59,909 nt of DNA. It comes from Acidobacteriota bacterium. GTDB lineage: Bacteria; Acidobacteriota; Aminicenantia; UBA2199. The position numbers and the translations under genes were made by a program. The notes under the pieces are model-generated. The model was given only the letters and a program-made list of their open reading frames with translations. It was not told the origin of the DNA and did no database searches. The stretch is from NCBI GenBank assembly GCA_030837085.1, contig JAUPLE010000120.1, forward strand, positions 1 through 59,909. The letters are read 5' to 3'. Below, one piece after another: positions 17,201 through 49,700 of the stretch (position 1 is its first letter; every line of letters starts with the position of its first letter).

Positions 17201-20200
17201 AATACAATGTCGATATCTTCGATGATGAAACCATAGTTCGGATGATTAATCATTATATCCGCCTGTTGGAAGAATCCCTCGGCCGCCCGGATGTTTGTAT
17301 CTCTACTCTGCCGATGCTAGACCTGGGGGAAATTAACCGTCTTTTGATAGAATGGAACGATACGGCAGTCGATTATCCCCGGGAGAAAACCATACACCAA
17401 TTATTCGCAGAACAGGCGGCAAGAACCCCCGACCGAATTGCGATTTTTAGCCACGGACGAACACGGACAAACACGGACAATAATATCACCTACAAGAAAT
17501 TGGATGTACAATCCAACCGGTTGGCCCATTTATTAATAGAAAAAGGCGTCCTGGCGGACAATATTATAGGTATCATGGCTGAACGGTCTATCGATCTCGT
17601 TATCGATATTATGGGCATATTGAAAGCCGGTGGCGCCTATTTACCCATCGATCCTTCATATCCCCAGGACCGAATCGATTATATGTTAGCAGACAGTGCG
17701 GTCAAAATTTTGATAATAAAATCCGAAATTCGAATATCGAAATACGAAACAAATCCAAATGACCAAAAAATAAATATCCAAAACAAAAACGTTGAAGACT
17801 TAATGGTTTTGGATTTTGAACATTTGGATTTTGAATTTGTTTCGAATTTCGAATATCGTGCTTCGAATTTGTTACCTGCAAATCTCGCCTATATCATCTA
17901 CACCTCCGGTTCTACTGGAAAACCCAAAGGTGTGACGGTAGAACATGGTTCTGCAGTAAATTTATTATATTCGCTGCAAAACGAATATCCCTTTGTTGAA
18001 TCGGATACTTACCTGTTAAAGACATCTTATACTTTCGATGTATCGGTAACAGAGTTATTTGGATGGTACATGGGGGGAGGGAAGTTGGCGATATTGGAAA
18101 AGAACGGCGAAAAAGATCCACAAGTAATATTCGATTGGATCGAACGGTATTTTGTCACACATATCAATTTTGTGCCGCCCATGTTTAATGCCTTTGCAAC
18201 CCAATTGGATAGTAAACATATAAAACGATTATCGAGTCTGAAGTATATTTTTTTAGCAGGTGAGGCGTTGTTACCGGAGTTTGTAAAAAATTTCCGCAGC
18301 TTGAATACAAGCGTCAGGTTGGAAAATATATATGGCCCAACAGAGAATTCGGTTTATTCCAGCAAGTATTCCTTAGCCGATTGGAGCGAAAGTCGAAGTG
18401 TCCCTATCGGTAGACCGTTACCCAATATAAAACTATTCATTTTGAATAAATATAATTATCTTCAGGCTATAGGAATATCCGGTGAGTTGTGCATCAGCGG
18501 ATTAGGATTGGCGCGGGGGTATTTAAACCGCCCGGAATTAACCGCTGAAAAGTTTGAACAGGATTTATGGGCTGAGCAGGATAACCAGGATGATAGAAAC
18601 AAAAGCTTTTGCGGGGGGGATAGGGGGGCGGTTTTCTCGAAAAAAGCCCCCCTGCTCTACCGCACCGGCGACCTGGCCAGGTGGTTACCGGATGGCAATA
18701 TCGAATTTTTAGGAAGATTAGATAACCAGGTAAAGATCAGGGGATTTCGCGTAGAACTGGGTGAGATCGAAAACCTATTACGAAAACATATTGGGATAAA
18801 AGGCACGGTTGCTGCAGTATTAAAGGGAGATGAAACCGGTGATAAAAGCCTGGCAGCATATTTTGTCTCAGATATAGAGCTTTCGGAAACTCAATTGAGA
18901 GAATATTTATTAAAAAATTTGCCGGACTATATGATACCATCGTACTTTGTGCGGTTGGAAAAGATTCCTTTAACCCCCACTGGAAAAGTTGACCGCAAGG
19001 CTTTACGCGGGCCAATAGTAAAAGAAATAGCCGATTATGCTGCCCCCCGGGAAGAAAAAGAAATGAAATTGGTGGAAATATGGGCCGAAATTTTAGGTAG
19101 AGATATATCTCAGAACCGGATAGGAATCGATGGAAATTTCTTCCAATTAGGGGGCCATTCGTTAAAAGCGATTTCCCTTGCTTCCAGGATATACAAAGAA
19201 TTTAATGTAAAAATTCCTTTGGGAGAGATATTTAAAAGACCCACCATCAGGGGGCTTTTCGATTATATCAAAGGGGCGGCTGGTGAACTGTACATCCGGA
19301 TAGAAGCGGCCGAAAAGAAGGAATACTATGTACTGTCATCGGCGCAGAAGCGATTGCATTTTTTGCAGCAAATGGACAACACCGGGACTGCGTATAATAT
19401 TTCAGCAGCATGGATACTGGAAGGAATTGTAGAGAAAGACAGGCTGGAACAATCCATCGTGAAACTCATCCAGAGACATGATAGTTTAAGAACATCTTTA
19501 CAAGTAATCGAAGACCACCCGGTGCAGCGAATCCAGGAAAATGTGGAATTTAAAATTGAGATATTAAGTGGTAGGGGCGAGGAAATTTTAAAAACTTTCA
19601 TTCGCCCTTTCTACTTGTCGAAAGCGCCGTTATTACGTGTGGGATTAGTTAAATTAGCAGAAAACAAGCATTTATTGATGGCGGACATGCATCACATAAT
19701 ATCGGACGGTATGTCTATGCAAATCCTGGTACAAGATTTTTCAGCCTTTTACATGGGGAAAGAATTGCCGGAGATAAAACTCCACTATAAGGATTACGCT
19801 GAATGGCAAAACCGGGAAAGATCGAGTAAAAAAATCCTCGAACAGAGTGAATACTGGAAAAAGGAATTTGAAGGAGAAATTCCTGTATTGGAGTTGCCGA
19901 CCGATTATGCGCGACCTGTTGTCCAGGCGTTTGCAGGAAACAGGATCAATTTTGAGCTAAACAGTGAAACTTCCTGCGCATTAAAGTCCATGGCATTGGA
20001 GGCAGAAGCGACGCTGTTTATTGTACTAAAGGCATTATATGCTATCTTTTTAGCTAAGTTAAGCGGCCAAGAAGATATCATAATCGGTTCTCCTGCGGCA
20101 GGGCGCAGGCATCATGATATAGAAATGATTATGGGCTTGTTTGTGAATACGCTGGCATTAAGAAGTTATCCTCGTGGAGAAAAGCAGTTTATGGAGTTCC

Positions 20201-46795: not shown

Positions 46796-49700
46796 TCGAC
46801 CATCGCGCCTGTAGAAAAAAAAGATTATTATCCTATATCTTCAGCCCAGCAAAGGCTATATGTTCTACAACAGATGACTGAGAAGAACACCAGCTACAAT
46901 GAACCGTTGGTAGTCGTACTAGAAGGTGAATTCAGTAAACAAAAAGCTGAAAATACCTTCCAACAGTTAATCAAGCGACATGAGAGTCTCAGGACTTCTT
47001 TTGGTATCATAAACGAAGAACTGGTCCAAAAGATACATAATGAGGTCAATTTCGAAATAGATTTTCTCATTTTGGATGAAATAATGAAGCAGCCGGAGGC
47101 GGTTGTCCTGACGAAAGAAAGTGTTTTATCGTCCATTGTCAACGGCTTTATCAGGCATTTTGACCTGGAAAACGCCCCTCTTATAAGGGTAGGGTTAATT
47201 AAAGAGGAAGAAGAACTATTCGTATTGATGGTGGATATGCATCATATAATAACGGATGGGAGTTCCCACATCATTTTTATACATGATTTTATAAAGTTAT
47301 ATAACGGAGTGGAACTTCCCAAACTTACTATTCAGTATAAAGATTATGCTCAATGGCAAAACCATTTAAATCAATCGGGAGAAATACGAAGACAGGAAGA
47401 GTATTGGCTGAGAGAATTTGAAGGGGAAATTTCGAAATTAAATTTACCTATCGATTATTTTAGACCCGCGACCCTTAGTTTTGAAGGGAACCGAATCGCT
47501 GATGTAATTAGCAGCCGGGAAACAACCATATTAAAAAAAATGGCTTTAGAAAAAAATGCAACCCTATTTATGGTACTGTTGTCTATTTTTAATATTTTCT
47601 TATCCAAACTGAGTGGGCAAGAGGATATTGCTTGCGGTACGATAATCGCTGGGCGAAGACATGTCGAGTTCCAGAAGATAATCGGGGTGTTTGTTAATAC
47701 CCTAGTATTAAGAAATTATCCCTGGGGAGAGAGTACCTTTGAAGAATTTTTGAGAGGCATAAAGGAAAAAACATTGGAAGCCTTTGAGAACCAGGATTAC
47801 CAATTTGAAAACTTGGTTGATAAAGTCGAAAAAATCAGGGATACCGGTCGAAATCCCATGTTCGACGTGATGTTTATAATGCAGAATGTGGACAGTCCAA
47901 AAATAAACATGCCCAATGCGAGGGTAAAACCTTACCCTTATCAAAACTTGACGGCAAAATTTGATTTAAAGTTGGATTGCGTTGAAAGAATAGAGGAGAT
48001 AGAATTACGGTTTGAATATAGTACGAGGCTGTTTAAAGAAGATACATTGAAGCGATTTATCCGTTACTTTTTAAGAATAGTATCGACGGTTACTACAAAT
48101 CCTGCCAAAAAAATAGGAGATATAGAGATTATTTCTGATGAAGAGAAGGAACAACTGTTATATAATTTTAATAATACACATGTGGCATTTCCAGGAAACA
48201 AGTCCCTTCATCAATTATTTGAAGAACAGGTGGAACGAATCCCGGACCGTATTGCCCTCGTGGGGGCAGACCTGCGTGTCTGCCCAGTCAGCCTTTCCTA
48301 CCACCAATTAAACGGGCAATCCAACCGCCTGGCCGCGCTGTTAATCGAAAAAGGCGTCCTGACGGACAATATTGTAGGTATAAAAATAGAACGTTCCCTT
48401 GAAATGATAATCGGGATCATGGGCATATTGAAATCCGGCGGGGCTTATTTGCCCATCGCCCCCGGTTACCCGCAGGCAAGAATCGATTATATGTTGAAAG
48501 ATAGCGGAGCTAAATTGTTGGCTGTCGCCAACGATAAAGAAGGTGAGAAGGTGAGAATTTTGGAAGGTGAGAGAGTGCTTTTAGAAGAAATCTTCAAATC
48601 CACAAAAATCCCTTCTTACCTTCTTACCTTCTCACCCTCTTACCTTCTAAACTCTTCAAATCTCGCATATATCATCTACACTTCCGGTTCCACTGGAAAA
48701 CCAAAAGGCGTGATGGTAGAACATGGTGCAGCAGTAAATTTATTATACGCAATGCAAGAACAATATCCCTTCGCTGCATCGGATACTTACCTGTTAAAGA
48801 CATCGTACATTTTTGATGTATCGGTAACAGAATTTTTCGGGTGGTACATGGGGGGGGGGAAATTGGCCGTATTGGAAAAGAGTGGGCATAAAGACCCCCG
48901 GGTAATACTGGATTGGATTGAACGATATACAGTAACTCACATCAATTTTGTGCCCTCTATGTTCAATGTATTTATAGAGTTCGTGGCCGGAGAAAATAAG
49001 AGTCGCTTATCAAGTTTAAAATATATCTTTTTAGCGGGTGAGGCACTGTTACCTGGATTGGCAGCGAAGTTCGGGAATTTAAATACAGATATAAAACTGG
49101 AAAATATATATGGGCCTACGGAGGGCACTGTATATTCGGGAAAATACTCATTATCTGATTGGAATGGAATTGAAGATATCCCCATCGGCAAGCCATTACC
49201 CAATATCAAACTATATATTTTAAATAAATACAATTATTTACAGCCGATAGGGATTGTGGGAGAGTTGTGCATCGGTGGTTCAGGATTAGCGTGTGGGTAT
49301 TTAAACCGTCCGGAATTAACCGCGGAAAAGTTTAATAGGCCCTATGGTTCCTATAAGACCTATATTCTTTACAAAACCGGGGATTTGGCCCGTTGGTTAA
49401 ATGACGGCAACATTGAATTTCTTGGTCGCATTGATCACCAGGTGAAAATTCGCGGGTTCAGGATCGAATTGGGAGAAATAGAAAGTCGCTTAATGAAACA
49501 TATGGAAATAAAAGAGACGGTAGTACTTGCAAGGTCATATGAAAATGGCGATAAGTATTTATGCGCATATATTACAGCTTGCCGGGATTTCGTGGTTTCT
49601 GAGTTAAGGGAACATCTGGTAGATTGCTTACCCGAGTATATGATTCCATCCGAGTTTTTGCAGTTGGAAAAAATGCCTTTAGCCAACGGTGGAAAGATAG

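Follow-up and report, generated by a model that had tools for sequence, protein, structure and literature searches.

A hybrid nonribosomal peptide synthetase/polyketide synthase (NRPS/PKS) assembly line is encoded on contig JAUPLE010000120.1 (assembly GCA_030837085.1) of an Acidobacteriota bacterium of the class Aminicenantia. The whole 59,909 nt of this contig were analysed and are called the window here. The adenylation (A) domains of the assembly line carry short repetitive cassettes at three places, referred to as sites 1, 2 and 3. These cassettes are very probably the host genome's own short dispersed repeats, which have landed and been kept in frame at tolerant loops of the A domain, in the manner of Rickettsia palindromic elements (RPEs). 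The assembly line consists of five co-directional open reading frames (ORFs) between 14236 and 55596, and according to Pfam, nine AMP-binding (A) domains, N1 to N9, are spread over four of them (Table 1).

A MAFFT alignment of the nine A domains contains three blocks rich in indels. Site 1 separates ...PDRIA from the A1 motif LTYxxL, site 2 separates A2 from A3, and site 3 separates A6 (GYLNxPELTAEKF) from A7 (YRTGD). Repeat DNA, either hairpins or tandem repeats of 7-10 nt, is present in 21 of the 26 slots, and one further slot holds an insert of unclear origin. At site 1, five of eight domains carry a repeat; the unclear insert is that of N7, nothing is present in N5 and N6, and N1 does not include the site. 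Site 2 is filled in eight of nine domains, N1 being canonical, and site 3 in eight of nine, N7 being canonical. A preliminary description of this DNA had placed the non-conserved A-domain sequence at three positions, which is borne out by the alignment, by Tandem Repeats Finder (TRF) and by blastn. It had also called the cassettes palindromes or short tandem repeats; this applies to the 21 slots and fails at site 1 of N7, for which no repeat origin is demonstrable.

Five families, FamA to FamE, were distinguished among the cassettes. FamA is the hairpin GGGCAGACCTGCGTGTCTGCCC, found at site 1 of N3, N8 and N9. AAATCCG heptamers make up FamB, a palindrome of about 150 nt at site 2 of N2, N4 and N6, and FamC is a palindrome of AGAAGGTG octamers, at site 2 of N3 and N9, with a GAAGAGCA variant in N5. 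FamD, with the core GGGGGCGNTTTTTCAAAAAAGCCCCCTGG, occupies site 3 of N1, N2, N3, N6 and N8 as well as site 2 of N7 and N8, in agreement with the earlier remark that one family can sit at site 2 in one module and at site 3 in another. FamE, a TCCTATAAG tandem, is located at site 3 of N5 and N9. Single cases outside the families are two in N4, a heptamer array (site 3) and a hairpin like those of repetitive extragenic palindromes (REPs; site 1), and one in N2, a 10-mer array (site 1).

Inverted repeats are longest at site 2, where the top six of the 60-kb window are all found (in N2, N4, N6 and N9), and nearly all tandem repeats with a TRF score of at least 40 within the coding region lie at sites 1-3. 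Palindromic character is strong for FamB, FamC, FamA and the N4 site 1 element; a number of cassettes are not palindromes but tandem repeats. RNA folding is most pronounced for N9 site 2, N4 site 1 and the three FamB copies (z in Table 1), and the FamD hairpin is weak (z +0.6 to -2.3). The sequence GTAG is found together with the hairpin in FamA (N3, N8) and at N4 site 1. By hairpin, tandem-repeat or blastn criteria, no cassettes were detected in the C, T and PKS domains of the window, and Rfam gave no match in the window at gathering score. For the A regions, Pfam returned AMP-binding and AMP-binding_C only, with no embedded catalytic domain (M, KR, Ox). Inteins and splicing were set aside because the inserts are too short and Pfam reported no intein or other extra domain.

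Table 1. Positions in the window of the synthetase ORFs, the cassettes and related features (z, RNA folding z score; I numbers, inverted repeats; L and P numbers, loci and proteins from other genomes).
Feature	Position	Strand	Content	Support or remarks
ORF	14236-25845		N1-N4	
ORF	25850-35731		N5, N6	
ORF	35728-43704		N7, N8	
ORF	43685-50101		N9	
FLEK-family intergenic palindrome	12843-12901	+	core AGACCAGAAACCTTTTCGAGAAAAGGTTTCTGGACT	I20; blastn matches to ~10 unrelated Aminicenantes loci; 11 non-ORF copies among the loci
Intergenic FamD	12902-12964	+	FamD	54/55 identical to the N1 site 3 copy; blastn matches to >30 unrelated loci
Intergenic tandem	13806-13830	+	GAAGAGCR tandem, like the N5 site 2 cassette	TRF row 13808-13826
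N1 site 3	15211-15328	+	CAGATTACG tandem, A-rich stretch, FamD 15264-15325 (peptide KSFTGVRTGGAVFQKSPL)	98.4% identity over 62 nt to L078
N2 site 1	17449-17488	+	CACGGACAAA tandem x2.9 (peptide HGRTRTNTD)	TRF; 92-95% matches in L081, L015, L093; four non-ORF copies among the loci
N2 site 2	17719-17873	+	FamB palindrome, ~150 nt (peptide KSEIRISKYETNPND...FEFVSNFEYRASNL)	I1, I2, I16, I18; z = -6.7; matches L006, L023
N2 site 3	18556-18657	+	DLWxxQD cassette, then FamD 18597-18657	first half like the L103 site 3 cassette
N3 site 1	20710-20784	+	FamA hairpin 20714-20735 with GTAG in front, plus GTCCGAACT tandem	
N3 site 2	21016-21119	+	FamC right arm only (CCTCTCAC/CCTTCTTA 8-mers)	TRF; weak fold, z = -2.0
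N3 site 3	21787-21863	+	FamD, left end degenerate	blastn, alignment
N4 site 1	23975-24010	+	REP-like hairpin GTAGAGGCGTTGCACACAGCGTCTCTAC (peptide VEALHTASL)	z = -7.05
N4 site 2	24233-24398	+	FamB palindrome, ~150 nt, AAATCCG 7-mer arms	I3; TRF; z = -4.0; matches L033, L006, L098, L038, L023
N4 site 3	25099-25131	+	heptamer ATTCATC x4.7 (peptide HHSSFIIHHS)	TRF score 66; six non-ORF family copies among the loci; peptide also in P0113, P0032, P0033 and others
N5 site 2	31100-31197	+	degraded palindrome of GAAGAGCA and TTCCTCGC 8-mers	TRF; fold not significant, z = -0.7; peptide type in P0076, P0102
N5 site 3	31888-31930	+	FamE, GTCCTATAA 9-mer tandem (peptide RSYKSYKTY)	TRF
N6 site 2	34235-34311	+	FamB minus hairpin tip, 77 nt	I4, I9; z = -5.0
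N6 site 3	34950-35046	+	DLWxxQD cassette, then FamD 34988-35046	blastn, alignment
N7 site 1	37360-37400	+	10-aa insert HDHDIRGEGT	seen in alignments; no TRF, hairpin or blastn support
N7 site 2	37625-37700	+	full-length near-consensus FamD (peptide KKFLGGPRGDFSKKPPGCRRP)	96.5% identity over 58 nt to the L026 copy; matches to >60 loci
N8 site 1	41914-41943	+	FamA hairpin GGGCAGACCTGCGTGTCTCCCC (peptide GADLRVSP)	
N8 site 2	42166-42235	+	FamD in another frame (peptide FFRGSRGAILQKSSP)	blastn, alignment
N8 site 3	42922-42997	+	FamD (peptide KFLGVRTGGLFFKKAPGRRR)	blastn, alignment
N9 site 1	48260-48289	+	FamA hairpin GGGCAGACCTGCGTGTCTGCCC (peptide GADLRVCP)	z = -2.1
N9 site 2	48533-48650	+	FamC palindrome, AGAAGGTG and CCTTCTTA 8-mer arms	I5, I6; z = -8.25
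N9 site 3	49335-49370	+	FamE remnant (peptide GSYKTYIL)	native loop replaced at native length
Gene-conversion tract, common to N5 and N9	31910-32045 / 49349-49484	+	from inside the site 3 cassette through A7-A8	~96% over ~135 nt; ~60-70% outside

The least biased test of dispersal was a blastn search in which the window was compared with 100 loci from other genomes. Matches to many unrelated loci were confined to the spacer at 12833-12964 and ten A-domain segments, all at sites 1-3 (15251-15328, 17447-17488, 17803-17873, 18597-18657, 21787-21863, 24233-24398, 34988-35046, 37625-37700, 42166-42235 and 42922-42997). When the 20-nt FamD core was scanned over one genome per species, at least 97 matching stretches were found on many contigs, nearly all of them from metagenome-assembled genomes (MAGs) of Candidatus Aminicenantes; a few of the matches listed come from MAGs labelled Acidobacteria, Deferrimicrobium or "bacterium". 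The window's closest NRPS homologues likewise suggest an origin in Aminicenantes. The consensus of 96 FamD copies is about 62 nt long and has sharp ends (AAAAGTTTTnnGGGGGTCCAGGGGGCGGTTTTTCAAAAAAGCCCCCTGGTCGCCGnAGGCA). Outside any open stretch of at least 150 codons lie 48 of the 99 matches listed, and the remaining families are likewise present in non-ORF DNA of these genomes. Copies of different ages can be recognised. The FamD copies of N7 site 2 and N1 site 3 are young, being 96.5% and 98.4% identical to copies in other MAGs; decayed copies are the tipless FamB of N6, the one-armed FamC of N3 and the FamC of N5, which no longer folds. The cassettes might also have formed locally, in loops that evolve fast, through slippage and duplication templated by hairpins, with the intergenic look-alikes being secondary or coincidental. 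Many cassettes are indeed 7-10 nt tandem arrays of variable unit number, and site 3 of N5 has one 9-mer more than that of N9. Nevertheless, this origin is very unlikely, since slippage cannot yield FamD, a complex 60-nt element with sharp ends that is 96-98% identical at unrelated loci of other MAGs.

Sixteen of the 99 FamD matches listed are situated deep within long ORFs, six of these in NRPS A domains. In A domains of other genomes, FamD occurs at site 3 (loci L051, L052 and L088) and, in reverse orientation, at site 1 (L084, L085 and L097). Hosts of in-frame FamD confirmed by Pfam are a sulfatase, an HpcH/citrate-lyase-like protein, an ABC-transporter ATPase and a GH3-PA14 glycosidase; those recognised by eye are a hybrid sensor kinase and a TIR/NTPase/TPR protein. 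The latter, a 1499-aa open stretch (L036) with a putative role in defence or signalling, has two separate in-frame copies, NKSFSGVRTGGAVFQKSPLV and KSFHGGDRGAAFSKGAPLE. The FamD consensus is free of stop codons in five of its six frames, and all five translations (KSFSGVQGAVFQKSPL, KKFFGGPGGxFSKKPPGRRR, KVFRGSRGRFFKKAPW, QGAFLKNRPLDPxKTF and RRPGxFFEKxPPGP) are found in real proteins. In another Aminicenantes NRPS (L060, 6903-6930), a REP-like hairpin (peptide VRRDVARNVSTV) lies in frame beside the motif ENYP, in what appears to be a condensation-type domain; permissive loops in NRPSs are therefore not confined to A domains.

The suggestion that the three sites are permissive surface loops is supported by alignments and by a structural model. 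Among 69 aligned related A domains, sites 1-3 lead in both the length and the frequency of insertions. At least eight extra residues are present at site 3 in 20 sequences, at site 1 in 18 and at site 2 in eight, and at any other position in no more than three; a8-a9 is hardly used for insertion. An AlphaFold (AF2) model of N2, built on the 69 sequences, has a mean predicted local distance difference test score (pLDDT) of 84.9 and a predicted template modelling score of 0.83. Its interior 10-residue blocks with a pLDDT below 80 are 51-60, 141-190 and 421-450, which are the three cassettes, and 201-210, just past a cassette; two further brief dips in confidence occur in the C-terminal subdomain (481-490 and 511-520). 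Compared with LgrA, site 1 adds seven residues to the hairpin ahead of LTY, and site 3 comprises 31 unaligned residues where LgrA has seven. The a2-a3 connection is also used by interrupted A domains, as the preliminary description had pointed out: TioN and MarQ carry an inserted domain, a whole methyltransferase, between a2 and a3, and others are interrupted at a8-a9 (PMC11355689). In those enzymes the a2-a3 connection was shown to accept large insertions without loss of adenylation (PMC11355689). Unlike their whole functional catalytic domains, the cassettes are repeat-derived stretches of 10-60 aa that are probably disordered and contain no Pfam domain.

The cassettes had been described as insertions, which is only partly accurate, since at sites 2 and 3 they often replace the native loop instead of adding to it. 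In 80 A domains of other lineages, the median lengths of sites 1, 2 and 3 are 7, 45.5 and 11 aa. Site 2 in the window measures 28-62 aa, as against this ordinary median of 45.5 aa, and site 3 of N9 measures 12 aa; often, therefore, the loop has been replaced rather than enlarged. Among the 80 domains, repeat-like slot content was seen only on contigs with Aminicenantes-type peptides and in one further lineage. N7-like A domains of a separate lineage (L140, L161 and L170) contain a tandem repeat of their own, NYELEIRNYESGITDG and similar, by which site 2 grows to 88-104 aa. Repeat colonisation of the A2-A3 slot may be more widespread.

The content of a slot turns over even between close relatives. 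A comparison of orthologues, which the preliminary description had proposed as a check for polymorphism of the cassettes, was made on a related synthetase rather than on the window's own genes. The orthologous single-module C-A-T genes P0004, P0008 and P0011 (loci L101, L103 and L104) are 91-92% identical at the DNA level. Their sequences match as far as ...GAAAARTTT (...GCAGAAAARTTT) and do so once more from the codons for YRTGD onward (L101 and L103, TCTACCG...; L104, ATTTATCG...). In between, at site 3, L101 has a reverse FamD, L104 a reverse FamD followed by a spacer and a FamE array, and L103 228 nt of other tandem repeats. The slot is thus conserved, its content is not. These data bear on the idea that the inserts are lineage-specific functional loops, serving docking, regulation or localisation, with peptides conserved for function. 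The same peptide types do occur at the same sites in many homologues at 45-55% identity, a pattern that had been named beforehand as a sign of conserved loops. Although literally present, it is explained by repeat families shared within one lineage and not by conserved function. Since orthologues that are 91-92% identical have unrelated site 3 content, conserved peptide function is not the explanation. The same DNA is also intergenic elsewhere and is read in five different frames, one family can occur at site 1, 2 or 3, some modules have empty sites, and model confidence is low in these stretches. The chance that the peptides are kept for a function is accordingly very small.

The A domains that carry the cassettes are mosaics, N9 among them. 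From the C-A linker through site 1 and in the A1-A2 segment, it resembles N3 and N8 (75-87% DNA identity). In the right arm of site 2 it resembles N3 only (67-80%; both have FamC), a likeness that collapses just after A3. It resembles N2 (75-87%) only from A3 to site 3, and from site 3 onward it is 95-97% identical to N5, with which it shares a gene-conversion tract (Table 1). The boundaries of the exchanged A3-A6 core thus coincide with sites 2 and 3. Module duplication and gene conversion passed on or spread many of the window's cassettes together with the A-domain segments beside them, so the cassettes do not represent 22 independent insertions.

The mosaic raises the question of whether the cassettes are adaptive recombination junctions. 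Located at sites 2 and 3, on either side of the specificity-conferring A3-A6 core, they would allow it to be swapped between modules, through portable homology or through breaks induced by hairpins. The coincidence of the N9 boundaries (towards N3/N8, N2 and N5) with the sites favours this idea, as does the fact that natural recombination is known to swap parts of the core subdomain in NRPS evolution (PMC8097286). However, N2 and N9 share the A3-A6 core and differ in cassette family at both borders (FamB versus FamC at site 2, DLW plus FamD versus FamE at site 3); the homology for the crossovers must then have come from the adjoining motif DNA and not from the cassettes. They map to the conserved A3 and A6 motif DNA beside the cassettes, the cassette copies in the window are only about 70-90% alike, and the same breakpoints would be expected in any NRPS. 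For the reason given by N2 and N9, the cassettes as a source of homology for core swapping were downgraded, and a role as adaptive junctions is unlikely. The cassettes look like passengers of recombination in adjoining conserved motifs. Some arrays have units of 7, 8 or 10 nt in frame (25099-25131, 24244-24274, 31101-31135, 48538-48572 and 17452-17480). The gain or loss of one such unit would shift the frame of a synthetase of about 2,100-3,900 aa, and a slippage switch is possible. A broader proposal is that the cassettes form an evolvability device, in which repeats and hairpins outside the A3-A6 core speed core swapping and cassette exchange and the 7-, 8- and 10-nt units make synthetase expression switchable by slippage; it, too, has a low probability.

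A metagenomic contig might also contain spurious sequence or chimeric joins brought about by such repeats. Short-read assembly does break at them, and many homologues sit on partial contigs of 2-5 kb. The only contigs found to encode genes of the window are identical short Logan contigs; two of them, L001 and L002, which correspond to window positions 12911 to about 15233 and contain ORF 13029-13712, begin at the intergenic FamD copy, and the longer one stops close to the N1 site 3 copy, so that short-read contigs break at cassettes. Still, in-frame cassettes are present in independent NCBI, JGI, ENA and Logan assemblies, including the megabase-scale records CP070627.1 (9.13 Mb), whose NRPS fragment directly follows an assembly gap, and OZ244653.1. 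The copies within the window are, moreover, too diverged to confuse an assembler. An assembly artefact is thus extremely improbable.

The preferred reading, in which dispersed repeats of the host settle at tolerant loops, could work as follows. A pool of REP- or RPE-like palindromes of about 25-150 nt and of tandem repeats with 7-10 nt units would, in this lineage, land mainly in intergenic DNA and become fixed in frame in genes whose protein tolerates an added disordered peptide. The A domain would offer three tolerant places, namely the hairpin turn ahead of A1, the A2-A3 connection and the A6-A7 loop that ends the core subdomain. Insertions elsewhere would be purged, and the survivors would accumulate at three fixed slots, which would then reflect selection rather than target preference; their concentration at the A-domain borders may exceed what loop tolerance predicts. 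Afterwards, the cassettes would decay by deletion of the hairpin tip, loss of one arm, or gain and loss of repeat units, and could displace the native loop. Copying between modules and turnover between orthologues would proceed by recombination or gene conversion starting in the near-identical adjoining motif DNA (A3, A6, A7-A8).

Several observations weigh against this reading. No direct repeat, and thus no target-site duplication, flanks 42 full-length FamD copies, whose flanks read TAATA on the left and AAAAAA on the right. The FamD ends, AAAAGTTTT and CCGGAGGC, do not form an inverted pair, so the element lacks terminal inverted repeats, and no transposase was found for it. For these reasons its mobility is deduced only from its distribution, and transposition would be the presumed mechanism. 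All eight FamD copies in the window (12902-42997, the intergenic one among them) run in one direction, that of the + strand, which would not be expected of simple random insertion. A strand bias may account for this, or inheritance by duplication or conversion; both orientations are found inside genes in other genomes. The distribution data derive from fetched loci, and an enrichment in A domains relative to other genes is putative. No close orthologue of the cluster was found, the best protein match to N8 being 54% identical and the best metagenome-contig match to N7 60% (63% over a partial match). Nor could a contig be traced for P0113, one of the proteins with the N4 site 3 peptide. Finally, that the full-length proteins are synthesised and active is something we infer.

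RPEs (Ogata et al. 2000, as summarised in PMC10969869) are dispersed palindromes found in frame in unrelated genes at fold-compatible positions. They had been put forward as a precedent, and the comparison is apt, as their dispersed families lie both in non-coding DNA and in frame in unrelated genes (PMC10969869). The elements described here share with RPEs the existence of several short palindromic dispersed families, intergenic as well as in frame in unrelated genes, which are compatible with the fold and add a peptide. Features of an RPE-like class found here are multi-copy dispersal, hairpins, intergenic and in-frame copies, loop positions and, in the related synthetase, polymorphism between orthologues. 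New relative to the RPEs as summarised are the phylum, the number of coexisting families, their stacking in one domain type with saturation of three fixed slots (about 80% occupancy), the frequent replacement of native loops and the turnover of content between close orthologues; in addition, most of the elements are shorter, at 25-60 nt with a maximum of 150, and some are simply tandem repeats. The class assignment is functional and not based on the sequences of RPE-1 to RPE-10, and homology to RPE families is unlikely in view of the different phylum.

REPs are short GC-rich hairpins with GTAG in front that occur in high copy number, are mostly extragenic and form composite arrays. FamA and the N4 site 1 element, being GC-rich hairpins of 22-28 nt with GTAG in front, resemble REPs and bacterial interspersed mosaic elements, as does the composite array of FLEK and FamD at 12843-12964. 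Unlike REPs, which are extragenic by definition, the elements here are frequently translated. No gene for a RAYT, the Y1 transposase that goes with REPs, turned up, although none was sought. Cyanobacterial small dispersed repeats and heptameric short tandemly repeated repetitive (STRR) sequences (Elhai et al. 2008; Mazel et al. 1990) are reportedly very small and mobile and also lie inside genes. They differ from the present elements in organism and sequence, and we know of no report of their concentration in NRPS loops. [quoted passage not shown] In contrast to MITEs, FamD has no detectable terminal inverted repeats or target-site duplications, and the density per domain type is far higher here. 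A search of the literature found no report of such repeat colonisation for NRPS or for Aminicenantes.

Some further features of the window deserve mention. N1 starts about 90 residues inside the A domain and lacks the A1 motif (14236-14550), and a tblastn search of the 1.5 kb upstream did not detect any trace of the absent N-terminus; this loading module may be truncated, non-functional or unusual. The FLEK element sits in the divergent spacer between ORF 10349-12775 (- strand) and ORF 13029-13712 (+ strand). The C domain of module 4 (22810-22850) has a 14-aa insert, GISRRDPAWSS..., that is not in its paralogue. Its DNA, GTAGGG...GCGCGACCCTGCGTGGTC, is loosely FamA-like, a likeness that is not substantiated, and the insert could represent a decayed cassette in a domain other than an A domain. 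Near the start of the window, at 1222-1493, TRF reported a tandem repeat of 147 nt (1.9 copies, 76% match, score 339) that is unrelated to the NRPS cassettes.

For metagenomics, breaks at these repeats probably explain the fragmentation of NRPS genes of this lineage into 2-5 kb pieces, the "partial" homologues and odd "hypothetical proteins". For natural-product enzymology, the synthetases represent a large natural experiment in which three A-domain loops accept, and even exchange, 10-60 residues of arbitrary sequence. The hairpin before A1, the A2-A3 connection and the A6-A7 loop are thereby practical candidate sites for tags, splits and linkers. Much of the canonical A2-A3 segment would appear dispensable, provided that the enzymes turn out to be active. 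Should the doubtful evolvability proposal be true, core swapping would be faster in these bacteria, and their synthetases would be individually switchable by slippage.

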